A DNA stretch of 64,000 bases from an uncultured Acidobacteriaceae bacterium (GCA_963795545.1 CAWCIF010000001.1:601365-665364); one strand, 5' to 3'; positions 1,977-52,249 are shown, counted from the stretch's first letter. The notes: generated by a model not told the origin, from the sequence alone. Translations and numbers: made by a program.

Positions 1977-2162
1977 AATCGCTTGTGACTCCGCTTGCTC
2001 CGCGGTAGTGGCTGCGAACCGCGCCAGACACGCGCCCGGCGAAACATTGTCAGCCTGGCATACGTACTTATCGCCTGCCTTGTAACTGGTGAGCCTTACC
2101 GGCCAGCCGCCAATTTCAAGCTGGCGTTCATGAAACTGCTCGACTTTGTTTGTCGCTTCCAT
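1923..2162 (-). CDS. small hypothetical protein (79 aa) coupled to the rhodanese gene
   Basis: The ATG at 2162 lies 4 nt after the stop of the upstream minus-strand rhodanese gene (2167). No recognisable family. It overlaps the 3' end of the convergent dehydratase gene by 54 nt. Confidence 0.4.
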   Translation of the reverse strand: MEATNKVEQFHERQLEIGGWPVRLTSYKAGDKYVCQADNVSPGACLARFAATTAEQAESQAISKARHLLGKTKRRDISG

Positions 2163-2166
2163 ATTT

Positions 2167-3030
2167 CTACGCCCCTGCCGATTTCGCCGTCCCGCGCTCT
2201 ACCGGAGCACCTACCAGGTTGCCCCACTCCGTCCATGACCCGTCATAGTTCGTTACGTTCGGCAATCCGAGTAGATACTTCAGAACGAACCAGGTATGGC
2301 TGGAGCGCTCGCCGATCCGGCAATAGGCAATGGTAGGCTTCGACGCGCTGACGCCCTCGGCCGAATAAAGCGCCTTCAGTTCGTCAAACGTCTTGAATGT
2401 GCCATCCTCATTGCACGCCTTGCTCCAAGGCACGTTGCGTGCGGCCGGAATGTGCCCACCCCGCTGGCATGTCTCGGGCAAACCCGGGGGCGCCAGAATC
2501 TCGCCCGTAAATTCCTGCGGACCGCGGACGTCAACCAGCGATGCGGCATGGTTCTTTACCGCTTCCTGCACCTGGGGAAGGAACGCCCGCAGCGAAAGAT
2601 CCGGCTCTTGCGCCTTGTATTGCGTGTGCTCGTAGGAAGGAGTCTTGTCACTCACCTCCCTGCTTTCGGCCAGCCACTTCTTACGGCCCCCGTTCAGAAT
2701 TCTGACGTCTTTATGCCCGTAGATCTTGAGCTGCCAGAATGCCCACGCCGCAAACCAGTTATTGCTGTCACCGTACAAAACGATGGTTGTTTCCGGCTTA
2801 ATGCCCGATTTTGATAGCAGCGCTTCCAACTCGCCCTTCGGCAAGATATCGCGCCGAACCGTGTCGCAGAGCTGCGTGTTCCAGGCCCAGGCGATCGCTC
2901 CCGGAATGTGCCCCAGATCATATGCGCTGGTATCAACATCCACTTCCACGATGCGCAGGGAAGGGTCCGTCAGCTTTCCGGCAAGCCACTCAGTGTCAAC
3001 CAGGACTTCAGGATGTGCATACTGTGCCAT
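2167..3030 (-). CDS. two-domain rhodanese (thiosulfate / 3-mercaptopyruvate sulfurtransferase)
   Basis: Tandem rhodanese architecture with active-site loop YCRIGERSSHTW and the GHIPGA motif. The probable start is MAQYAHPEVLVDTEWL at 3030; the ORF track extends to 3129. Confidence 0.85.
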   Translation of the reverse strand: MAQYAHPEVLVDTEWLAGKLTDPSLRIVEVDVDTSAYDLGHIPGAIAWAWNTQLCDTVRRDILPKGELEALLSKSGIKPETTIVLYGDSNNWFAAWAFWQLKIYGHKDVRILNGGRKKWLAESREVSDKTPSYEHTQYKAQEPDLSLRAFLPQVQEAVKNHAASLVDVRGPQEFTGEILAPPGLPETCQRGGHIPAARNVPWSKACNEDGTFKTFDELKALYSAEGVSASKPTIAYCRIGERSSHTWFVLKYLLGLPNVTNYDGSWTEWGNLVGAPVERGTAKSAGA

Positions 3031-3154
3031 AATTCCTACCTTAACACGGCATTCTCTATCGAGAAAGGGGGTCATGGTACTGCTGCAACCGCCCTCGGTG
3101 ATTCTGCGCGCTTCAACTTGCGCCAACACACCGCTAAGATAGCTTCTAGCGCCA

Positions 3155-4345
3155 ATGCTCCGCGTCCATGAAGCCTATCCCGAAGTTCGCGCCTCTGCGT
3201 CGCGGTTATCCGCCCTGAGAGTGCCCGCACTGGATGGAATTCGGGGCATTGCCGTCCTGATGGTCTTGCTGCATCATCTGTCGGGATATCTTCCGCAGCA
3301 TTCACGGCCATTTTCCGAAGCCGCCGCCGTGCTCCGCAACGGTTGGGTGGGTGTTGATCTGTTCTTCGTTCTCTCGGGCTTTCTCATAACGGGAATCCTG
3401 CTCGACACGAAATACGCCCCTAATTACTTCCGTTCCTTCTATGCACGCCGGGTGCTTCGAATTTTTCCGCTGTACTACATAGTTCTGAGTGCAATCGGCT
3501 TCGCGGCAGCCCTCCCTTACGTGGGTCAATGGCTGCGTCCCATACTTCCCATATCCCATGACCGGCTGTTCTATTTCGTGTACCTGAATAACTGGTGGCC
3601 GTTGCTAAAGGATACCTGGCACGCCAACATCATTGGCCATTTCTGGAGCCTTGCCGTCGAGGAGCAGTTTTATCTGCTCTGGCCGCTTTGCGTATGGCTG
3701 CTGCCGCGAAGGAAATTGCCGTGGGTTGCCGCAGGCGGAATTGCCCTGGCAATTCTCATTCGCTGCGGTATCTATCATTACTTCGGTCCCACTCGCAGCA
3801 TAGTGGAAAACACTTTCGCGCGCATGGATACGTTGCTGATGGGTGCTCTCATCGCAATGCTCGTGCGCAGCCCTCGCGCTCTAAAGATTTTGCACCCGTA
3901 CCTATACTCAGCCGCTATTGCGTCAATAGCCATTCTGCTGTGCTTCAATGCCCTTGGCGGTGTTCCGCAATACAACGAATTCTACGGCGTGTCGGTTCAA
4001 TTCACGTTAATCGCCGTTGTTTTCAGCGCGATCGTGCTGCGGGCCTTTACAAGGCGCGATGATAGCACCGCCGTACAAACATTCCTGCGCCGGCCCTTAC
4101 TTGGCAGAGTGGGTAAATACAGCTATGGCATGTATGTCTACCATGTCCCAATTATGCTCGCGAGTGCCGCGCTTCTGCGTCACTTTGTCAGCCGCAACTT
4201 TAGCGCGCCCGTTGCGGTGGCGTTCATGATGGGCATTATTCTGCTTACCTACGGCGTGGCTAAGCTGAGCTTTGATTTTTTAGAAAGTCGATTTCTCAAG
4301 CAGAAGAAGCGGTTTGCGCCACGGGAGCCGGCCCATGCGGATTAG
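3155..4345 (+). CDS. acyltransferase family 3 (OafA/YrhL-like) integral membrane protein
   Basis: LDGIRGIAVLMVLLHH N-terminal motif, about 10 predicted TM segments, and WSLAVEEQFYLLWP. Confidence 0.8.
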   Translation: MLRVHEAYPEVRASASRLSALRVPALDGIRGIAVLMVLLHHLSGYLPQHSRPFSEAAAVLRNGWVGVDLFFVLSGFLITGILLDTKYAPNYFRSFYARRVLRIFPLYYIVLSAIGFAAALPYVGQWLRPILPISHDRLFYFVYLNNWWPLLKDTWHANIIGHFWSLAVEEQFYLLWPLCVWLLPRRKLPWVAAGGIALAILIRCGIYHYFGPTRSIVENTFARMDTLLMGALIAMLVRSPRALKILHPYLYSAAIASIAILLCFNALGGVPQYNEFYGVSVQFTLIAVVFSAIVLRAFTRRDDSTAVQTFLRRPLLGRVGKYSYGMYVYHVPIMLASAALLRHFVSRNFSAPVAVAFMMGIILLTYGVAKLSFDFLESRFLKQKKRFAPREPAHAD

Positions 4346-4839
4346 AGTTTACCGAGTCGCAACTCCGCGTAATCCAGCCGCAACTCCCCGCAGAGCGCTT
4401 CCACTACCAGTTCATGATCCTCCCGCTGCGGCAGTCCCGAAACGGTAACAGAACCAATCACGCCCGTGCCGACAACGGTGAGAGGAAATGATCCTCCGTG
4501 CGCTGCGAAATCCATCAGGGGCAGCCCGTACTTTTCTTCGAGCGTGGCATTCTTCCCCTGTAACTCCAGGCCCAGGCCGTACGAACTGCGATGAAACCGC
4601 GCGACGACATTCCCCTTGCGCCGCGCCCATTCGGCGTTGTCAGGAGCACTCCCGGAAAGGGCGCTGAAAAACAACAGTTGTCCCATCCGGCGGATGTCGA
4701 TCACCAGGGGGAATCCGCGCGACAGCGACATCTCGCGAAGCCGCACTCCCAGATTCCAGGCATCTTCCTCCTGGAAACGCTCAAAGCGGACCTTCTGTTC
4801 CTGAGCCGTGATGATCGCCAGGTCCTCGTCGATCGCCAT
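4342..4839 (-). CDS. UPF0303 / heme-degrading (GlcG-like, DUF336) domain protein
   Basis: 165 aa. Contains the ...FPLVIDIRR..., ..NAEWARRKGNVVARF.. and ..HGGSFPL..GVIGSVTVSGLPQREDHELVV.. pattern of the UPF0303 family. Confidence 0.7.
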   Translation of the reverse strand: MAIDEDLAIITAQEQKVRFERFQEEDAWNLGVRLREMSLSRGFPLVIDIRRMGQLLFFSALSGSAPDNAEWARRKGNVVARFHRSSYGLGLELQGKNATLEEKYGLPLMDFAAHGGSFPLTVVGTGVIGSVTVSGLPQREDHELVVEALCGELRLDYAELRLGKL

Positions 4840-4855
4840 GCACTGGAATCGCGGG

Positions 4856-5383
4856 CTACTGATGCGTGCTGCTGGTATCGTGCTTGTCGTTCATTACCGC
4901 GTTCTTTACGCCCTTAGCAGCGCTCTTCGCGGCGTGCCCGGTGCCTTCGCCTATCTTTGCAGCGCCGTGACCCACTCCTTTACCAAGATCCTTGCCGGCA
5001 TCGACGACGTTTCCGTGCTTTACCTCGGAGCCAAACTCTTTTCCACCATGGCCCATGTCCTTGCCGCCCGTGGAATAAGAATTTTTGAGCTGTGTGCCGG
5101 CCTTGCTAAAGCTTGTAGAAGGTGCGGCCTGTTGTACTCCTAAGCTGCTGAGCGTCTCTGGACCCAACCGTCCATCCGCCGTAAGGTTTTGCTTCTCTTG
5201 ATAGCTCCGAACCGCCCTGCGCGTTATCGGACCGTAGATTCCATCGACGGAACCCGAATAGAAGCCTTTATCCTTCAGTACCTGCTGTGCATCCCGGACT
5301 GTGTCACCGCGTTGCGCCACTGCAGGCAGAGCGCAAAGACCGATAGCGAATGCTGAACTGGCCAAAATCTTCCACATATACAT
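4856..5383 (-). CDS. secreted peptidoglycan-binding-domain protein
   Basis: Signal peptide (..LCALPAVAQ) followed by a PG_binding_1-like segment: VRDAQQVLKDKGFYSGSVDGIYGPITRRAVRSYQEKQNLTADGRLGPETL. The C-terminus is Gly/Lys/His-rich. Confidence 0.7.
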   Translation of the reverse strand: MYMWKILASSAFAIGLCALPAVAQRGDTVRDAQQVLKDKGFYSGSVDGIYGPITRRAVRSYQEKQNLTADGRLGPETLSSLGVQQAAPSTSFSKAGTQLKNSYSTGGKDMGHGGKEFGSEVKHGNVVDAGKDLGKGVGHGAAKIGEGTGHAAKSAAKGVKNAVMNDKHDTSSTHQ

Positions 5384-5472
5384 CTCCTAATAATCAATAG
5401 GACATCCCGGCGGGTCGGTCAGTTTCATGCCACCCGCACTCTACGCGCCTGTATGAAGGAAGAGTAATGTTT

Positions 5473-6213
5473 CTAGGGAGTCGCGCCAGAGATTTCCAGG
5501 AGCTCTATATGAAAAATAAGAGTAGCGCCACCCGGAATGGAGGCTTGGCCGTTGTCCCCATATGCCAGGTCAGAAGGACAGACCAGAATCGCCTCCCCGC
5601 CGACCTTCATTTTCTGCACGCCTTCCGTCCAGCATCGGATGACTCCGTTCAGCGCGAACTGCGCCGGCTGGTTTCGGCTATACGAGCTGTCAAACTCAGT
5701 TCCATTCACCAGCGTGCCGCGATAGTTCACTTTTACCGTGTCGGTCGCCTTGGGTGACGGCCCAGTCCCAGGCCTTACATCGCGATAGATCAAGCCGGAG
5801 TCTGTCTTAACGGCGCCCGGTTCCGCCGCAGCCTTCTCGAGATATGCCTTTGACTCTGCCTTTTCGCGCTCCGTCACACGGATGCGGCGCGCTTGAGCCA
5901 GCGGTTCGATCTTGGGTCCCCACGTTTGCAGATCCGCAGCCGGTTTACCGGCTGCCCCGTCGCTGATCGCCCGCTTAACAATCGCAAGTTCCGAAGGAGA
6001 CAAATCGAACTGCGCCAGCGATCGATAAATGGACAGGCCAAGCGAATAGATAGTCTTTTCGTCATCCGTCGCCAGTACCGGCGCGGAGTTGGTAGGCTTT
6101 GTGGTTGACACGGTATGCCTCGGATGCGCTGGCTTCGCCGTTCCCGGTTGAGATCTAGGGGGCTGAGTTTGCGCCATTAAAATGACTGGCGCAAAAAACA
6201 ACAATGCACGCAT
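5473..6213 (-). CDS. FKBP-type peptidyl-prolyl cis-trans isomerase (FkpA-like, secreted)
   Basis: Signal peptide plus a C-terminal FKBP domain: VKVNYRGTLVNGTEFDSSYSRNQPAQFALNGVIRCWTEGVQKMKVGGEAILVCPSDLAYGD...LIFHIELLEI. Confidence 0.9.
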   Translation of the reverse strand: MRALLFFAPVILMAQTQPPRSQPGTAKPAHPRHTVSTTKPTNSAPVLATDDEKTIYSLGLSIYRSLAQFDLSPSELAIVKRAISDGAAGKPAADLQTWGPKIEPLAQARRIRVTEREKAESKAYLEKAAAEPGAVKTDSGLIYRDVRPGTGPSPKATDTVKVNYRGTLVNGTEFDSSYSRNQPAQFALNGVIRCWTEGVQKMKVGGEAILVCPSDLAYGDNGQASIPGGATLIFHIELLEISGATP

Positions 6214-11824: not shown

Positions 11825-13314
11825 TGTCGGTAATAAGTCAAGATGTCCGGTTTTATTAATACGTGATCTGTCCGGTTTTAGGTTTAGGCGGCGCGAGCCG
11901 CCCTTGTTTTCCGTTTACCGCCAGCAACAGCAGCCGGCGCGGTGGGAAAGTGGGAATCTCGCGTCATTTGCGAGATTTCCAAGGGAGTGTGGGAGACGGA
12001 GGAAACCTGCTTTGGGTTTTCGCCGGCTTCCAGGCTCCCGCCTTTTCCACCGCGCTTGGTATTTGCCGTTTTTCGCGTGCTGCCATCGCGATTGAAGCGG
12101 CCCACCACGTGTGGTCCGTAGCGCACTGACACGGAACCATCCAGGTGCTCGTGAATGGTTACGGTGCTGCCAGCCAACGTGTGCCGGAATCGGGTCTTGT
12201 CCAGCTGCCAGGACCGCGCGGCGATGGCGACGGTGTTATCTTTCGCCACTACGCGTTCGGTCTGGGTCGTGAATACCCACTCCAAATCAGTCCGGCTGCA
12301 ACGGCAAAAGGCCGTTCCTTTCTCCTGCGCCACAACCGTAAACTTCGCATTGAACTCGGCGATATAACGGTCCCGCAAGAATCGGTTCGCATCCTCTACC
12401 GCGCTGATCTTTGCCAGCCGGAGTTCCTGCGGCAAACGCCCTTGCCAGGTTCCGAAATTTCGTTCCGAGCGTCCCCGCGCTTGCGGCGAGTAGGCCGCGA
12501 TCATTTCCACTCCCAACTCTTTCATCGCCCGGCCTACTTGCGTCAAGCGCTGTTTGTCCACCTTTTCACCGGCTTTCGGCGTCACGAAAAAATGACTGCC
12601 ACGGTCGCTGTACAGAGCACAGAACAATCCTTGTTTCTCGATTACCTGGCGCAAAGCGGTCATCACCGTCCGCGTGGATTCCTCTTCCACCAATTGCGCA
12701 TAATAAATTTCGCTGTTGGCATCGTCCAAAATTACAATCAGGTCATACCAGCGGCCGTCATTCAGCCAGCGATGTTTGCTCCCGTCAATGTGCAGCAACA
12801 TGCCAGGCAATGGCCGCCGTGGCCGTCTGCGCCGGTGCGTGCCGCGTTTGTGCCGCTTCTTCACCAGCCCCGCCCCTTGCAACGCTTTTTGTACCCACGC
12901 ATAGCTGAGCTCGATGCCATGCTCCTCGCGTAGTTTCTCGTGGAAGTGCTGCATGTTCAGGTCGTAGTACACCTCCTGATACAGCCCTAGCACCCGCTCG
13001 GCGGTCGCCAGCGGCACCCGTCTCGGACTCGGCTTTCCTTTGCGTCCGTCTGACAATCCGGAGTACCCCTGCTCTTCGATTCGCTCCCGCCATCGCCGCA
13101 TTGTTCGGTCTGTCACCCCAATGATCTCGGCCGCCTGCCACCAAGTGATCTTCTTGGCCATCGCCCTCAGCAGCACTTCTTGTATCTTCATCATCCGCTC
13201 CATCTCCGCGGCTGAGTACTGCTGGGTTTCGTCCACCACCCAGCTTTACTTGCCGCGCGTCGTTGCGGACATTTCACGTATTATTTGAACCGGACAAATC
13301 ACATACTAGCGACA
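11825..13314 (-). mobile_element. insertion sequence, copy A (1490 bp), IS1202/ISNCY-like
   Basis: Same sequence as 50759-52249 in reverse complement, apart from one 1-nt indel as far as I can see. Imperfect ~50-bp terminal inverted repeats start with TGTCG (TGTCGGTAATAAGTCAAGATGTCCGG... versus TGTCGCTAGTATGTGATTTGTCCGG...). Internal TGTCCGG and AATACGTGA motifs occur at both ends. Confidence 0.9.
11884..13239 (-). CDS. DDE (rve/integrase-core) transposase, 451 aa
   Basis: N-terminal HTH (ITWWQAAEIIGVTDRTMRRWRERIEEQG), then LHIDGSKHRW...LIVILDDANSEIYYAQL...ALYSDRGSHF...SPQARGRSERNFGTWQGRLPQELR, the layout of IS1202-group (ISNCY) transposases. The start may be ATG 13203 rather than GTG 13239. 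Confidence 0.85.
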   Translation of the reverse strand: MVDETQQYSAAEMERMMKIQEVLLRAMAKKITWWQAAEIIGVTDRTMRRWRERIEEQGYSGLSDGRKGKPSPRRVPLATAERVLGLYQEVYYDLNMQHFHEKLREEHGIELSYAWVQKALQGAGLVKKRHKRGTHRRRRPRRPLPGMLLHIDGSKHRWLNDGRWYDLIVILDDANSEIYYAQLVEEESTRTVMTALRQVIEKQGLFCALYSDRGSHFFVTPKAGEKVDKQRLTQVGRAMKELGVEMIAAYSPQARGRSERNFGTWQGRLPQELRLAKISAVEDANRFLRDRYIAEFNAKFTVVAQEKGTAFCRCSRTDLEWVFTTQTERVVAKDNTVAIAARSWQLDKTRFRHTLAGSTVTIHEHLDGSVSVRYGPHVVGRFNRDGSTRKTANTKRGGKGGSLEAGENPKQVSSVSHTPLEISQMTRDSHFPTAPAAVAGGKRKTRAARAA

Positions 13315-13732: not shown

Positions 13733-16392
13733 ATGCGTCGTTTCTTCGCCCGATTTGCAAATTTGTTCCGCAGCCGCAGAGCGGAACGCGAGCTTGCCCG
13801 GGAGATAAGGTCTCACCTCGCGCTCCTGCAAGAGGACTTCGAGCAGCGTGGATTGCCTCCGGAGGCGGCGCAATTGGCTGCGCGCCGCTCTTACGGCGGG
13901 GTTGAGCAGGCCAAGGAACTGCATCGCGAAGCGCGCTCGTTCCTGTGGATAGAGCACCTGATCAAGGATGTCCGCTATGGCGGACGGAACCTGCTGCGGA
14001 GACCGGGTTTCACAGCCGTCGCCGTGATTGCGCTGGCGCTGGGGATCGGTGCAAATACGGCGATCTTCAGCGTAGTGAATGCAGTGTTGCTGCGCCCGCT
14101 GGCGTACAAGGATGCGGACCGGCTGGTTACCATTCTGAATAACGGAACCGATCCAGTGTCGACCGCCAACTACATTGACTGGCGCGATCAGAGCCATTCT
14201 TTCGAAGCAATGGGCGCCGCAGATTACTGGAGCGCGAACCTTATCGACGGCGATGTACCGGAGCACCTGCTGGGCCTTAAGGTGCCACAAAACATGCTGC
14301 CGATGCTTGGCATCAGGCCGCTGCTGGGCAGGCTGTTCATCGCCGGGGAAGACCGGAACGGCTCTGACCATGAAGCGATACTGAGCTATTCGTTGTGGCA
14401 GCGGCGCTTTAATCGCGAACCCGGCGTATTAGGAAAACCGATCATTCTTAATGGCGAGGCGTACACCGTGGTTGGCGTGATGCCGCCAGGGTTTAAGTTT
14501 GCGCCGTTCTGGGCGACGCACGCGGAGTTGTGGGTGCCGGATGCATTTGGCGGCGGCATTCACGATCGGGACAGTAACCACCTGCGCGTTTTCGCGCGGC
14601 TGAAGCGAGGTGTCACGCTCGCGCAGGCACGTGCGGAGATGGCGGCGATTACGGGGCGTTTGGAGAAGCAGTATCCGGCGACGAACCGCAGCGTTCTGGT
14701 TACTCCTCTAAAGGAGAATGTCGTCGGGAAAATTGAAACGCCACTGCTAATGCTACTGGGCGCAGTGGGATTCGTACTCCTGATTGCTTGCGCCAATGTT
14801 GCCCACATGCTGCTGGCGCGCACATCCGACCGGCAGAAGGAAATGGCGGTGCGAGTTGCGCTGGGCGCTAATCGAAGCCGCGTAATAGCCCAGATACTTA
14901 CCGAAACCTTCTGCTGGCAATCACAGGTGCCTCGGCCGGGCTGCTGCTTGCGCTGGGAGGAACGAAGGCTCTGATTGCGCTCAGCCCGGCATACATCCCG
15001 CGCGTCGAGAAGGTGGCGATCGACGGCCATGTTGTGCTCTTTCTGCTCGGTATTACGGTATTGACAGCAGTTGTGTTTGGGCTGATGCCGGCCATGCGCG
15101 CTGCTGCCGGAAATCCCAGCGAGGCACTCAAAGAGGGCGGTCGTGGAGATAGCGACGGCATTCGCCGCAACCGATTGCGAAATTTTCTGGTTGCCTCCGA
15201 ATTCGCGCTGGCCTTCATGCTGTTGATCGGAGCCGGATTGATGATCCGCAGCTTCTTCGCGCTGCAATTGGTCGACCCGGGATTCAATCCGCGCAATGTG
15301 CTCTCGATGGTTGTATCGGTCGCCGGAACGAAAGCGGCCGAGCCGCACCGTCGTGCGATTTTCTACCGCGAACTGCTCCAAAAGATCCGGGCCTTGCCGG
15401 GGGTGAACTCCGCAGGCGCAATCAATCATCTGCCGCTGGCAGGCGATACATGGGGATTGTCATTCAGCATCGAGGGGCGTCCCAAGCCGCGGCCGGGTGA
15501 AGAGCCGATAGCCGTTTACCGCATCGTCATGCCAGGGTATTTCGAGATCATGCGCCTGCCTTTGCGCCGCGGTCGCACCATCACCGGCCAAGATGATGGC
15601 CGCGCGCCCGATGTGGTGATAATCAATCAGCGCGCGGCTGAACAGTATTGGCCAGGCCAAGATCCAATCGGCAAGCGCATTACGTTTGACGAGGATAAAG
15701 GCAAGGCGTCAGACTGGGTAACCATTGTTGGCGTAGTCAAGAATGCAAAGCAGGAAGACTGGGCGGCCGAGCCCGATCCCGAGGTTTACCTTCCGGCGCT
15801 CCAGAGCCGTAATTTTCTGGGAGAGGACAAAGGACCCATCGCGGCGCACATGATGTACATCACGCTGGTAGTGCGCCGCGGTGGGAATCTGACTGATCTT
15901 GCCTCCGCCGTAAAGCACACCGTGCGGTCATTTGACCGCAATCTGCCGACCTCGGATGTCCTCACGATGGAGCGGGTGGTGGCCGACGCGAATGCGCAGC
16001 CTCGCTTTGAGATGCTCTTGCTGACGGTGTTTGGCGCGGTTGCGCTCCTACTCGCGGCAGTAGGGATTTACGGAGTAATGAGCTATTCGGTATCGCGGCG
16101 CACGCGCGAGATCGGAATCCGCATTTCGCTGGGCGCAAGCCGGGCCGAGGTGTTGCGGATGGTTGTGAAGCAAGGCATGCTGCAGGCGCTGGCGGGCACG
16201 GCAGCCGGCTTTATTGGTGCGTTGCTGCTGGCGCAGCTTGTGGCCAAGATGTTGTACGGCGTGCGGCCGACCGATGCCTTGACCTTTGGCGCGGTAGCGA
16301 TCGTGCTCAGCCTGGCGGGGCTGCTTGCTACTTGTGTTCCGGCGCGCAAGGCCACCAGGATTGAGCCCGTGCTGGCATTGCGCAGTGAGTAG
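13733..16392 (+). pseudogene. ADOP-type duplicated MacB/FtsX permease, interrupted by a frameshift (or sequencing error)
   Basis: ORFs 13733-14974 and 15013-16392 are the two halves of one ~885-aa MacB_PCD+FtsX x2 protein. The family sequence continues in the -1 frame from about 14908 ([41 protein letters not shown]...), so one nt is missing near GAAACCTT at 14903-14910. Confidence 0.8.
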
Positions 16393-22856: not shown

Positions 22857-23462
22857 ATGAAACCCATGTTCCTGAAGGATGTAGAGCAGCATCGCGGCGA
22901 GGATAATTACACACGGGCGATCGAAATGATGCGCCGTTCCGGGCCGGAATACCCGCAGATTCTGCACATGTTCTCTTACAAGATGAACGCCACGGTGCAC
23001 CTGGAGCGATTTACGCAGGAGATCATGCGCGAGCCAGCGCCGCTTTCGCCCGGAATTCGCGAATTGATCGCAGCCTATACGTCGCACCTGAATCAGTGCC
23101 CATTTTGAACGAAGTCGCACGCCGCGGTCGCGGCGGAACTCTTAGAAGATGAGCAGCTCGTTACGAGTGTCCTCGCTGATGTAGAGACGTCAAAACTGTC
23201 TGATTCGGAAAAGGCGCTGTTCCGGTTTGTTCGCAAAGTGAATGGGGACTCCGTATCCATTGGTCCGTCCGATGTCGGCTCCCTCCACCATGCCGGATAC
23301 AGCGATGGAGCGATTTACTACGCGATCAGTGTGTGCTCACTGTTCAATTTCTATAATCGGTGGATTGACGCCAGCGGAGTGCACCCCATGAGCGACGAAG
23401 CGCATAGGTTGGGCGCGAAGCGATCTGCGATACATGGTTATTCGCGGAGTTCTCAAAAATGA
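22857..23462 (+). CDS. AhpD-like / carboxymuconolactone decarboxylase-family peroxidase-related protein, candidate selenoprotein (UGA 23106-23108 read as Sec)
   Basis: ORFs 22857-23108 and 23238-23462 share one frame, and nt 23109-23237 have no stop. The read-through product is ...IRELIAAYTSHLNQCPF[U]TKSHAAVAAELLEDEQLV...ALFRFVRKV...GYSDGAIYYAISVCSLFNFYNRWIDASG..., which follows the CMD-family CxxCxxxH core and its C-terminal half. A SECIS-like hairpin follows the UGA. Confidence 0.6.
23112..23143 (+). promoter_or_regulatory. candidate bacterial SECIS stem-loop
   Basis: CGCCGC (23120-23125) pairs with GCGGCG (23130-23135) around loop GGUC (23126-23129). A possible extension is C23118:G23136 with A23119 bulged, plus AAG 23112-14 : CUU 23141-43. 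The loop starts 20 nt after the U of UGA. Confidence 0.5.
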
Positions 23463-25537
23463 ACTACTTCACGAACCGGCTCCTGCCCGCGTGCTTGCTG
23501 GTCTTTTCGAGCGGCGCGTTTGCGGCGGATTTCAGGCCGCCTGCTGTGCCGCTAATCACACACGACCCGTACTTCAGCATCTGGTCGATGGCCGATCATC
23601 TCACGGACGCCCCTACCAAGCACTGGACCGGAACCATTCAATCTCTATCGAGCGTGGTGCGCGTGGATGGCAAAATTTACCGGGTCATGGGCACCGATCC
23701 GCGCGGCGCCCCGGCGTTGCCGCAAACCCACCTCGAAGTGTTTCCCACGCACACCATTTATGATTTCGAAGGCTCCGGTATCCGGCTCACCCTTACGTTC
23801 TTCACGCCAGCCCTGGCGCGTGATCTCGACGTCCTCTCGCGTCCGGCTAGCTACCTGACCTGGCGCGTACAGTCTGCCGACGGCAGCAGCCATAACGTGC
23901 AAGTGTATTTCGACGCCGGTTCCGACCTCGTCGTGAACATTCCACAGGAGCGTGTGTCCTGGGCTCGATACCGCGACGGAGATCTGCAGATTCTGCGCAT
24001 GGGCACACAGCAGCAGCAGCCCGTGCTCCAAAAATCAGGCGATAACCTGCGCATCGACTGGGGTTATCTGTATGTCGTGATGCCTCCCGGTGGCGCTGGT
24101 TCTGAAATCGCTAATACACGCCGCGAGGCAATGGGATCTTTTATCAAAAAGGGCAGCCTTCCGGATTCCGATAATCTCCGCGGCATGGAACCGTACGAAG
24201 AATCCATGCCCGTACTTGCATCCTCATTCGATTTGGGCAGAGTGGGCACAGCAGCGGTTTCCCGGCATCTCGTCATTGCTTACGATGAGGTTTTCGCCAT
24301 CGAGTACTTCGAGCGGAAGCTGCGCCCCTATTGGAACCGGGACCGGCTAGGGCCGGCTGGAATGCTTCGCGCCGCGCTGCGCGACTACCAGGAGCTTGAT
24401 CAGCTTGCCCAGAATTTCGATCAAGGTCTCATGCGCGATTTGCAGCGCGCAGGTGGTGAAGATTATGCGCGGCTCTGCGCGCTGGCGTATCCGCAGACTC
24501 TTGCCGCGCACAAACTGACCGCCGACCTGCAGGGAACCCCACTCTTCTTTTCCAAAGAAAACTTCAGCAACGGCTCAGTGGATACGGTTGACGTCACCTA
24601 TCCTAGCTCGCCATTTTTCCTGCTGTTCAATCCCCATTTACTGGAAGCTCAGCTCAAACCGATTTTCGACTACGCAAATCTTCCCCGCTGGCATTTCCCG
24701 TTTGCCCCGCACGATCTGGGGAGATACCCGCTGGCGGACGGCCAGCAGTACGGAGGGCGCGAGACTTCGGAAGAGAACCAGATGCCAGTAGAAGAGAGCG
24801 GCAATATGCTGCTGATGACGGCGGGCATAGCGCAGGTGGAGGGCAATGCAGATTTCGCGCAGCATTACTGGCCGATGCTTACGAAGTGGGCGGAATATCT
24901 GAAAGCCAAAGGATTCGATCCGGAGAACCAGCTCAGTACTGACGATTTCGCCGGCCATCTGGCTCACAACGCGAATCTGTCTATCAAGGCCATCCTCGCC
25001 TTGGGCGCTTACGGCAAATTGGCCGGAATGCTAGGGCACGCCGATATAGCATCTCAATACACTGCGCTGGCGCGAGAGGATGCCCGGCTATGGGTTCAAA
25101 AGGACAACGATGGCGATCATTTCCGCCTTGCATTCGACCGCGCCGGCACCTGGAGCCAGAAGTACAACCTGGTTTGGGACAGGCTGCTGGGCTTGAAGCT
25201 TTTTCCCCCGGAAGTGGCCGAAAAGGCGCTTGCTTTCTACCAAAAGCATGTCAATCAATATGGGCTGCCGCTGGACAACCGGGCCGATTACACCAAGCTG
25301 GATTGGCTGACTTGGACCGCAACTCTGGCCAATTCGCAGAAGCAGTTTTTACTATTTTTCGAGCCCGCCTACCGGTTTGCAAATGAATCCCCCAGCCGGG
25401 TCCCGCTGACTGATTGGTACGACACCAAGACGGGGAAACAGGTTGGATTTCAGGCTCGCTCGGTGGTAGGCGGGATTTTTATCAAAATGCTTACCGATCC
25501 GGCGATCTGGAAAAAGTACGCCAACGCGGCGCAGTAG
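23459..25537 (+). CDS. secreted glutaminase-A-like protein (DUF5127/DUF4965/DUF1793 architecture), probable glycoside-hydrolase-like fold
   Basis: Signal peptide, then FRPPAVPLITHDPYFSIWSMADHLTD..TKHWTG....VRVDGKIYRVMG, typical of this family, with a C-terminal alpha/alpha-toroid-like region. Its ATG overlaps the upstream stop (ATGA, 23459-23462). Confidence 0.65.
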   Translation: MNYFTNRLLPACLLVFSSGAFAADFRPPAVPLITHDPYFSIWSMADHLTDAPTKHWTGTIQSLSSVVRVDGKIYRVMGTDPRGAPALPQTHLEVFPTHTIYDFEGSGIRLTLTFFTPALARDLDVLSRPASYLTWRVQSADGSSHNVQVYFDAGSDLVVNIPQERVSWARYRDGDLQILRMGTQQQQPVLQKSGDNLRIDWGYLYVVMPPGGAGSEIANTRREAMGSFIKKGSLPDSDNLRGMEPYEESMPVLASSFDLGRVGTAAVSRHLVIAYDEVFAIEYFERKLRPYWNRDRLGPAGMLRAALRDYQELDQLAQNFDQGLMRDLQRAGGEDYARLCALAYPQTLAAHKLTADLQGTPLFFSKENFSNGSVDTVDVTYPSSPFFLLFNPHLLEAQLKPIFDYANLPRWHFPFAPHDLGRYPLADGQQYGGRETSEENQMPVEESGNMLLMTAGIAQVEGNADFAQHYWPMLTKWAEYLKAKGFDPENQLSTDDFAGHLAHNANLSIKAILALGAYGKLAGMLGHADIASQYTALAREDARLWVQKDNDGDHFRLAFDRAGTWSQKYNLVWDRLLGLKLFPPEVAEKALAFYQKHVNQYGLPLDNRADYTKLDWLTWTATLANSQKQFLLFFEPAYRFANESPSRVPLTDWYDTKTGKQVGFQARSVVGGIFIKMLTDPAIWKKYANAAQ

Positions 25538-50758: not shown

Positions 50759-52249
50759 TGTCGCTAGTATGTGATTTGTCCGGTTCAAATAATACGTGAA
50801 ATGTCCGCAACGACGCGCGGCAAGTAAAGCTGGGTGGTGGACGAAACCCAGCAGTACTCAGCCGCGGAGATGGAGCGGATGATGAAGATACAAGAAGTGC
50901 TGCTGAGGGCGATGGCCAAGAAGATCACTTGGTGGCAGGCGGCCGAGATCATTGGGGTGACAGACCGAACAATGCGGCGATGGCGGGAGCGAATCGAAGA
51001 GCAGGGGTACTCCGGATTGTCAGACGGACGCAAAGGAAAGCCGAGTCCGAGACGGGTGCCGCTGGCGACCGCCGAGCGGGTGCTAGGGCTGTATCAGGAG
51101 GTGTACTACGACCTGAACATGCAGCACTTCCACGAGAAACTACGCGAGGAGCATGGCATCGAGCTCAGCTATGCGTGGGTACAAAAAGCGTTGCAAGGGG
51201 CGGGGCTGGTGAAGAAGCGGCACAAACGCGGCACGCACCGGCGCAGACGGCCACGGCGGCCATTGCCTGGCATGTTGCTGCACATTGACGGGAGCAAACA
51301 TCGCTGGCTGAATGACGGCCGCTGGTATGACCTGATTGTAATTTTGGACGATGCCAACAGCGAAATTTATTATGCGCAATTGGTGGAAGAGGAATCCACG
51401 CGGACGGTGATGACCGCTTTGCGCCAGGTAATCGAGAAACAAGGATTGTTCTGTGCTCTGTACAGCGACCGTGGCAGTCATTTTTTCGTGACGCCGAAAG
51501 CCGGTGAAAAGGTGGACAAACAGCGCTTGACGCAAGTAGGCCGGGCGATGAAAGAGTTGGGAGTGGAAATGATCGCGGCCTACTCGCCGCAAGCGCGGGG
51601 ACGCTCGGAACGAAATTTCGGAACCTGGCAAGGGCGTTTGCCGCAGGAACTCCGGCTGGCAAAGATCAGCGCGGTAGAGGATGCGAACCGATTCTTGCGG
51701 GACCGTTATATCGCCGAGTTCAATGCGAAGTTTACGGTTGTGGCGCAGGAGAAAGGAACGGCCTTTTGCCGTTGCAGCCGGACTGATTTGGAGTGGGTAT
51801 TCACGACCCAGACCGAACGCGTAGTGGCGAAAGATAACACCGTCGCCATCGCCGCGCGGTCCTGGCAGCTGGACAAGACCCGATTCCGGCACACGTTGGC
51901 TGGCAGCACCGTAACCATTCACGAGCACCTGGATGGTTCCGTGTCAGTGCGCTACGGACCACACGTGGTGGGCCGCTTCAATCGCGATGGCAGCACGCGA
52001 AAAACGGCAAATACCAAGCGCGGTGGAAGAAGGCGGGAGCCTGGAAGCCGGCGAAAACCCAAAGCAGGTTTCCTCCGTCTCCCACACTCCCTTGGAAATC
52101 TCGCAAATGACGCGAGATTCCCACTTTCCCACCGCGCCGGCTGCTGTTGCTGGCGGTAAACGGAAAACAAGGGCGGCTCGCGCCGCCTAAACCTAAAACC
52201 GGACAGATCACGTATTAATAAAACCGGACATCTTGACTTATTACCGACA
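50759..52249 (+). mobile_element. insertion sequence, copy B (1491 bp), inverted relative to copy A
   Basis: Reverse complement of 11825-13314, with one extra G at 52029. Confidence 0.9.
50834..52159 (+). CDS. DDE (rve) transposase, 441 aa, C-terminal tail frameshifted relative to copy A
   Basis: Identical to the copy A protein up to ...KTANTKRGG, then a different frame. The copy A tail (GGSLEAGENPKQV...RAARAA) is encoded here in ORF 51933-52190. Confidence 0.85.
   Translation: MVDETQQYSAAEMERMMKIQEVLLRAMAKKITWWQAAEIIGVTDRTMRRWRERIEEQGYSGLSDGRKGKPSPRRVPLATAERVLGLYQEVYYDLNMQHFHEKLREEHGIELSYAWVQKALQGAGLVKKRHKRGTHRRRRPRRPLPGMLLHIDGSKHRWLNDGRWYDLIVILDDANSEIYYAQLVEEESTRTVMTALRQVIEKQGLFCALYSDRGSHFFVTPKAGEKVDKQRLTQVGRAMKELGVEMIAAYSPQARGRSERNFGTWQGRLPQELRLAKISAVEDANRFLRDRYIAEFNAKFTVVAQEKGTAFCRCSRTDLEWVFTTQTERVVAKDNTVAIAARSWQLDKTRFRHTLAGSTVTIHEHLDGSVSVRYGPHVVGRFNRDGSTRKTANTKRGGRRREPGSRRKPKAGFLRLPHSLGNLANDARFPLSHRAGCCCWR

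Follow-up and report, generated by a model that had tools for sequence, protein, structure and literature searches.

Results

The AhpD-like gene and its in-frame UGA

The DNA considered here is a stretch of 64,000 nt from an uncultured Acidobacteriaceae bacterium (GCA_963795545.1, CAWCIF010000001.1:601365-665364), which is referred to as the window. On its + strand, an open reading frame (ORF) for a probable AhpD-like or 'peroxidase-related enzyme' selenoprotein extends from an ATG at 22857 to its own stop, TGA, at 23460-23462, and translation of 22857-23462 is interrupted by a single in-frame TGA at 23106-23108. This is codon 84, the proposed selenocysteine (Sec) codon, and with it the gene comprises 201 sense codons. 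A spacer of 11 nt (23109-23119) leads from the UGA to the base of a hairpin with the 5′ arm CGCCGC (23120-23125), an apical GGUC (23126-23129) and the 3′ arm GCGGCG (23130-23135), all written in the codons CAC GCC GCG GUC GCG GCG (His-Ala-Ala-Val-Ala-Ala) and flanked on the 3′ side by a GAA codon (23136-23138). An initial annotation had pointed out this hairpin as resembling a selenocysteine insertion sequence (SECIS), and its positions and bases were found to be exactly as described there. Taken together, the evidence presented below makes it very probable that the hairpin is a bacterial SECIS (bSECIS) in the coding region of an AhpD-like (TIGR01926, CxxU) selenoprotein gene from an acidobacterium of the Bryobacteraceae/Solibacteraceae group.

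The read-through product contains the motif LNQ-C-P-F-[UGA]-T-K-S-H-A-A-V-A-A-E-L-L, in which C-P-F-U (TGC CCA TTT TGA, 23097-23108, + strand) is a CxxU version of the AhpD CxxC redox motif. Read with Cys in place of U, the protein reaches 89.8 bits in a comparison with NCBIfam TIGR01926 'peroxidase-related enzyme' (cutoff 81.8) and matches Pfam CMD (PF02627); a profile search also matched it to the core domain of AhpD and to two AhpD-related models labelled '(seleno)protein'. Solved AhpD-like structures (6k40, 3c1l, 2oyo, 2pfx and 2prr) align across the motif and place the UGA at the second Cys of CxxC; in 6k40, for example, LNRCVYCAVSH aligns with LNQCPF[U]TKSH, with C-V-Y-C opposite C-P-F-U. 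The same motif aligns with CxFC in at least 90 full-length homologues, and more distant full-length homologues have Cys (TGC/TGT) at the UGA codon position. Some Cys-type homologues (P0021/L162, P0039, P0072/L168 and P0073) have lost the first motif Cys and read T-x-F-C, with the Cys at the Sec position retained. This pattern suggests that the Sec-occupied position may be the essential nucleophile and the first Cys a dispensable resolving residue.

An 'AhpD-like protein, TIGR01926, CxxU' is catalogued as a selenoprotein family in a 2026 review of prokaryotic selenoproteomes (PMC13188914), AhpD-like 1 (COG2128, CxxU) is among the most abundant selenoprotein families of the Global Ocean Sampling (GOS) metagenomes (PMC2398784), and Acidobacteria were credited with selenoproteins already in 2006 (PMC1794560). 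The TIGR01926 family itself is labelled 'uncharacterized peroxidase-related enzyme'. The protein described here shares with the AhpD-like selenoproteins (COG2128/TIGR01926, CxxU) from the Sargasso Sea, the GOS metagenomes and several genomes the same family model, the CxxU motif, Sec at the second Cys position and an abundance of Cys-containing homologues (PMC2398784, PMC1794560, PMC13188914). Unlike the family members named in those three papers, the members reported here belong to soil Acidobacteriota (Bryobacteraceae/Solibacteraceae).

Conservation of the UGA in orthologues

Scans of species-representative genomes and metagenomes gave 160 loci with tblastn matches that cover residues 1-200 across the TGA; with one further locus (L001) and the window, these make up the 162 sequences on which the counts below are based, except that percentages of paired cells refer to 150 distinct sequences and the frequencies of single loop bases to 158 unique ones. 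The genome matches are almost all labelled Bryobacteraceae, Solibacteraceae or other Acidobacteriota metagenome-assembled genomes (MAGs), with a best identity of 90%. Orthologues occur also on complete Bryobacteraceae chromosomes (OZ244728.1, OZ255821.1 and OY969780.1). Among species-representative genomes there were more than 580 tblastn-confirmed matches, and the TGA was present in all 80 that were examined. Throughout the set of 162 the TGA stands at the position of codon 84, no insertions or deletions occur between it and the hairpin in the ungapped alignment, so that the 11-nt spacer is invariant, and the frame is intact on both sides at divergences of up to ~0.66 substitutions per site, with the parts of the protein before and after the codon both conserved.

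These data bear on the possibility that the TGA is a true stop, in which case the locus would be a split gene, a pseudogene or two short genes giving an 83-aa N-terminal and a separate C-terminal product. Database records fit such an arrangement, as a public protein collection holds the exact 83-aa fragment and relatives are recorded as an 83-aa 'hypothetical protein' together with 90-104-aa 'alkylhydroperoxidase family enzyme' fragments. Retention of the same TGA in an intact frame by all 162 sequences speaks against it, as does the location of the TGA, which coincides precisely with the catalytic Cys of a single-domain fold that Cys-type homologues encode without interruption; a pseudogene, moreover, would keep neither purifying selection downstream of the TGA nor the covarying hairpin described below. 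A true stop is therefore regarded as extremely improbable.

Structure of the hairpin

RNA folding, one of the checks proposed in the initial annotation, gave the 6-bp stem in both the minimum free energy (MFE) and the centroid structures from RNAfold, with an MFE of -12.4 kcal/mol for the 21-nt core and -13.5 kcal/mol for a 40-nt stretch. The + strand of the window holds 24 perfect hairpins with a 6-bp stem and a 4-nt loop, corresponding to a chance of ~0.04% for the exact offset from the UGA. Any 6-bp hairpin of a loosely defined bSECIS geometry follows 19 of the 916 TGA triplets in the window (2.1%), and the exact geometry follows a single one. A blind scan of the window for other TGA-interrupted ORFs followed by a hairpin returned dozens of candidates, mostly out-of-frame and none convincing.

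Two extensions of the stem were considered. A lower helix pairing AAG (23112-23114) with CUU (23141-23143), as suggested in the initial annotation, is part of the window's own MFE structure, yet only 50% of its cells are paired across the 150 orthologues, and it was rejected as not conserved. The pair C23118:G23136, the latter base belonging to the GAA codon that flanks the stem, could form and leave A23119 bulged; the His and Glu codons dictate the identity of each of these bases.

Several points weigh against a SECIS. The predicted stability does not exceed that of dinucleotide shuffles (z = -0.09 for 61 nt and -0.84 for 40 nt). Since the genuine SECIS of E. coli fdhF is likewise not significant in the identical test (z = -1.29), folding energy does not discriminate, and comparative data are therefore required. 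No Rfam family matched within the window at gathering thresholds, a null result that is uninformative because short bacterial SECIS elements inside ORFs are not captured. Neither a tRNA nor a sel gene was found in the 64-kb window by tRNA scan, by Rfam or among the annotated neighbours. The bulged U17 on the 5′ arm of the fdhF SECIS, which E. coli SelB requires, has no equivalent here (fdhF positions are counted from the U of the UGA, in a sequence confirmed by its presence in 5,419 E. coli genomes). Ala codons (GCN) dictate four of the stem's six pairs, which leaves the wobble pairs and the pair closing the loop as the only sources of information. Finally, the orthologues are related to one another, and counts of sequences overstate the number of independent events.

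Covariation in stem and loop

Across the 150 distinct sequences 99.1% of the stem cells are paired; all six pairs are canonical in 154 of 162 sequences, and the 5′ arm (23120-23125) is uninterrupted in every one. The pair 23123:23132, formed by the wobble bases of the first and third Ala codons, is C:G in 151 sequences, U:A in seven and U:G in four, and is never unpaired. At 23120:23135 there are 152 C:G, two U:A and two U:G pairs, with six sequences in which the pair is broken. Compensatory changes at synonymous sites, as would be looked for in the covariation analysis that the initial annotation had recommended, are thus present among the UGA orthologues.

The outer bases of the apical GGUC covary more strongly. 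Positions 23126 and 23129 are G..C in 104 sequences, A..U in 57 and C..U in one, while G..U and A..C were never seen, and their mutual information of 0.95 bit is the highest of any column pair in the region. Mapped on a neighbour-joining tree of the rest of the gene, the state of this pair changes at least 13 times, ~12 of these being independent switches between G:C and A:U, compared with ~48 changes expected when the tips are shuffled. The bases between them are nearly invariant: G23127 occurs in 158 of 158 and U23128 in 156 of 158 unique sequences, with flanks of G..C or A..U in 157 of 158. Because they covary without G..U or A..C states, 23126 and 23129 behave, as judged from these substitutions, as a strict Watson-Crick pair closing G23127-U23128. 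In structures of SelB bound to a SECIS, the GU is flipped out and G22 and C25 of fdhF are paired. The behavior of 23126 and 23129 matches the bSECIS consensus, in which the bases flanking G[G/U] 'form a base pair' (PMC13188914). The only two sequences without U at 23128 are the UGA orthologues L069 and L114, in which GGU (Gly) replaces GUN (Val) at the loop to give A-G-G-U or C-G-G-U, still within a consensus of G followed by G or U. RNAalifold recovered only five pairs and gave little credit for covariation; it is less informative than the explicit count of pairs because a 2-nt loop is not modelled and four of the pairs are invariant.

Comparison with Cys-type orthologues

Since so much of the stem is set by codons, the hairpin might be a passive by-product of a palindromic Ala-Ala-Val-Ala-Ala peptide (GCN GCN GUN GCN GCN) in a G+C-rich genome, with no decoding role. 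In favor of this, the central GU as well as four of the six pairs follow from the amino acids, the folding energy is not above that of shuffles, AAVAA is found also in Cys-type homologues, and one of these (L169) forms an equally stable hairpin. The DNA of eight distinct Cys-type (TGC/TGT) orthologues encoding the identical H-A-A-V-A-A served as a control. The equivalent of the wobble pair 23123:23132 is formed in two of these and absent from six, compared with 162 of 162 UGA genes in which it is paired; the outer loop bases are Watson-Crick in two of the eight; and the full hairpin is missing from seven and present only in L169, as against 154 of 162 UGA sequences. By Fisher's exact test, UGA and Cys-type genes differ in the wobble pair with p = 9e-10 and in the full hairpin with p = 7e-8, both values being inflated by the treatment of relatives as independent. 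Equal presence of the hairpin in Cys-containing orthologues, the outcome that the initial annotation had named as counting against its own proposal, is clearly not what is seen.

From the gene's own Ala codon usage, the wobble bases of two Ala codons are expected to pair by chance in ~44% of cases. The peptide itself is frozen only in the UGA forms: among database proteins, 24 of 25 Sec-type sequences contain AAVAA, as opposed to 13 of 95 Cys-type sequences, which show 28 other variants. Because orthologues of the Cys type with the same peptide mostly lack the hairpin, it does not appear to be a by-product of the peptide and, if anything, these comparisons suggest that the RNA constrains the peptide rather than the reverse. 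In view of these differences, the compensatory changes C:G to U:A and G:C to A:U at synonymous sites, and the minimum of synonymous entropy described next, a by-product is considered very improbable.

Synonymous constraint around the UGA

Nowhere in the gene is synonymous variation lower than at the five hairpin codons, whose entropies are 0.36, 0.99, 0.93, 0.26 and 0.37 bit; across 60 further conserved sites with four- or six-fold degeneracy the range is 0.86-2.3 bit. The two codons near 1 bit are those holding the covarying pair that closes the loop. Constraint is also evident at neighboring codons. The Phe codon directly 5′ of the UGA (23103-23105) is UUU in 159 of 162 sequences, whereas five of the gene's seven other Phe positions favor TTC. 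The His codon that precedes the hairpin's Ala codons is CAC in 157 of 162, versus roughly 50-70% at other His positions, and the Glu codon 3′ of the stem (23136-23138) is GAA in 137 of 153 (GAG in 16), versus ~50% elsewhere. The constraints on UUU and GAA may reflect context determinants of the competition between Sec insertion and termination, or part of an undetected pairing.

Comparison with known SECIS elements

The hairpin was compared with the bSECIS model (bSECISearch; Zhang and Gladyshev, summarized in PMC13188914, Fig. 2A). It is a stem-loop directly 3′ of an in-frame UGA and inside the ORF, as the model demands. For a loop that may have 3-9 nt and a stem that may have 4-16 bp it has 4 nt and 6 bp (7 bp if 23126:23129 is counted); for a G at loop position 1 or 2, usually with G or U after it and with pairable flanks, it has [G/A]-G-U-[C/U]; for a distance of 16-37 nt between UGA and apical loop it has 17 nt (23109-23125), invariant in the 162 sequences; and its MFE of -12.4 kcal/mol lies below the limit of -7.5 kcal/mol. 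The structure is, in addition, maintained by selection in UGA genes and, with one exception among eight, absent from Cys-type orthologues. With its 17-nt spacing, and with a loop that amounts to two nucleotides, GU, between Watson-Crick partners, the element stands at the compact extreme of the model.

The E. coli fdhF SECIS, of which nt 15-31 form the SelB-binding mini-helix, likewise lies inside the coding region directly 3′ of the UGA and has an apical GGUC with a conserved central G and U. Its mini-helix starts at nt 15 after a spacer of 11 nt (PMC8659212), both identical here, and the predicted stabilities of 40-nt stretches are similar (-13.1 kcal/mol for fdhF and -13.5 kcal/mol for the element described here). 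The GGUC occupies nt 21-24 here and nt 22-25 in fdhF, with the GU at nt 22-23 and 23-24, respectively; it is one nucleotide nearer the UGA because there is no bulge of the U17 type. The likeness to fdhF put forward in the initial annotation therefore holds for the loop and the nearly equal spacing but not for the bulged base, as the only candidate, A23119, lies seven pairs below the GU rather than five. The present stem also differs from fdhF in its six uninterrupted G:C pairs and in lacking a conserved lower helix that includes the UGA, and, whereas fdhF encodes a molybdopterin enzyme (formate dehydrogenase H), the host protein here is an unrelated thiol oxidoreductase with an AhpD fold. The element is thus a bSECIS by these comparisons, and not of the fdhF subtype.

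Selenocysteine machinery and the reading of UGA

A complete set of genes for Sec synthesis and insertion was found next to one orthologue. On the Solibacteraceae MAG contig CAZPZE010000683.1 (locus L034), the orthologue (5001-5591, + strand, 76% identity) directly follows selB (154-2055, - strand, 330 bits), selA (2052-3512, - strand, 462 bits), selD (3520-4590, + strand, 381 bits) and a tRNA-Sec with anticodon UCA (4602-4696, + strand), the last identified by ARAGORN and scoring 79.5 bits in Rfam against a gathering score of 47. The two genes on the - strand are divergent from the other three. This was the only one of 120 loci scanned to have a tRNA-Sec nearby. By analogy with this relative, and from the literature on Acidobacteria, the source organism of the window is likely to be Sec competent.

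An alternative is that the UGA is recoded as Cys, Ser or Trp by a suppressor tRNA, such as an allo-tRNA or a tRNA-Sec-like tRNA(Cys), with the hairpin acting as a roadblock that slows termination. Acidobacteria do have '8/4 and 9/3 allo-tRNAs', which have been proposed as nonsense or missense suppressors, and SelC*-type tRNA(Cys) occurs in other phyla (PMC5389517); public gene callers, furthermore, give Trp on short contigs. The closest database proteins (from JGI) show 'W' at the Sec position, yet the DNA of L001 reads TGA (353-355), and the 'W' is apparently an artefact of gene calling with genetic code 4 on short contigs. In the window TGA terminates 11 of 28 long open frames, that of the gene itself included; it is therefore an ordinary stop, which excludes code 4 and a general reassignment. 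SelC* genes were not reported from Acidobacteria (PMC5389517), the L034 orthologue adjoins a canonical tRNA-Sec with selA, selB and selD, and the nearly invariant GU, presented in a small apical loop at a spacing like that in fdhF, has the pattern that SelB recognizes (PMC13188914, PMC8659212). Recoding by a suppressor tRNA is accordingly judged quite improbable.

Neighboring genes

An MsbA-like ABC exporter gene lies upstream of the selenoprotein gene and is divergent from it. Downstream, a glutaminase-A-like gene with DUF4964, DUF5127 and GtaA six-hairpin domains (23459-25537, + strand) begins with an ATG that overlaps the TGA stop of the selenoprotein gene (ATGA, 23459-23462), which suggests translational coupling between the two. 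Cys-type relatives, unlike the gene in the window with its glutaminase-A-like neighbor, are flanked by MFS transporters.

Other annotated genes of the window include rplA, ADOP permeases and ISNCY transposases. The two ISNCY-family transposase copies (11884-13239, - strand, and 50834-52159, + strand; ~363 bits each against NF033594) are in inverted orientation ~38 kb apart and contain stretches of identical DNA, through which the intervening segment, including the selenoprotein gene, could be inverted. An ADOP-family duplicated permease, of a kind typical of Acidobacteria, is split between 13733-14974 and 15013-16392 (both + strand), which match TIGR03434 positions 1-326 and 362-803 in different frames; the split points to a frameshift, a pseudogene or a sequencing error.

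Discussion

If the hairpin functions as other bSECIS elements do, its action can be pictured by analogy with fdhF. The 16-nt mini-helix (23120-23135) would still be folded, 11 nt downstream, as the ribosome nears the UGA at 23106-23108. SelB, loaded with GTP and Sec-tRNA(Sec), would use its C-terminal winged-helix domain to bind the extruded G23127-U23128 and the backbone of the stem, and the tethered ternary complex would outcompete release factor 2 at the UGA in the A site. Sec would thereby replace the second Cys of the CxxC redox motif, after which the ribosome would melt the hairpin and translate H-A-A-V-A-A. The product would presumably have a peroxidase-type redox function, in keeping with its family.

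A more specific proposal, which is offered tentatively and may well prove wrong, is that the SECIS of this clade has been reduced to a 16-nt mini-helix without a bulge, in which the apparent tetraloop is a Watson-Crick pair closing an extruded G-U, and that it is written wholly in the codons of H-A-A-V-A-A, so that five protein residues are held constant by the RNA. The SelB of this clade would then recognize a simpler determinant than E. coli SelB does, without a bulge of the U17 type, and two codons, the UUU before the UGA and the GAA beyond the stem, would be signs of additional, as yet undescribed determinants of the choice between Sec and stop.

The mechanism proposed is an ordinary one, a SECIS of the SelB type in a selenoprotein family catalogued since the mid-2000s, and what is new is a well-supported acidobacterial example. 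The gene is widespread in soil Acidobacteriota and systematically mis-annotated, as an 83-aa protein, as a C-terminal fragment or as a protein containing Trp. Its orthologues form an unusually clean natural dataset for the determinants of bSECIS function, with 162 sequences, no indels, covariation confined to synonymous positions, and Cys-type genes for an identical peptide as matched controls. They also offer a clear example of RNA structure constraining a protein, AAVAA being constant among the Sec forms but not among the Cys forms. For the biology of the group, the finding strengthens the case for selenocysteine use by aerobic soil Acidobacteriota, with the L034 contig providing a compact selB-selA/selD-selC-selenoprotein locus.

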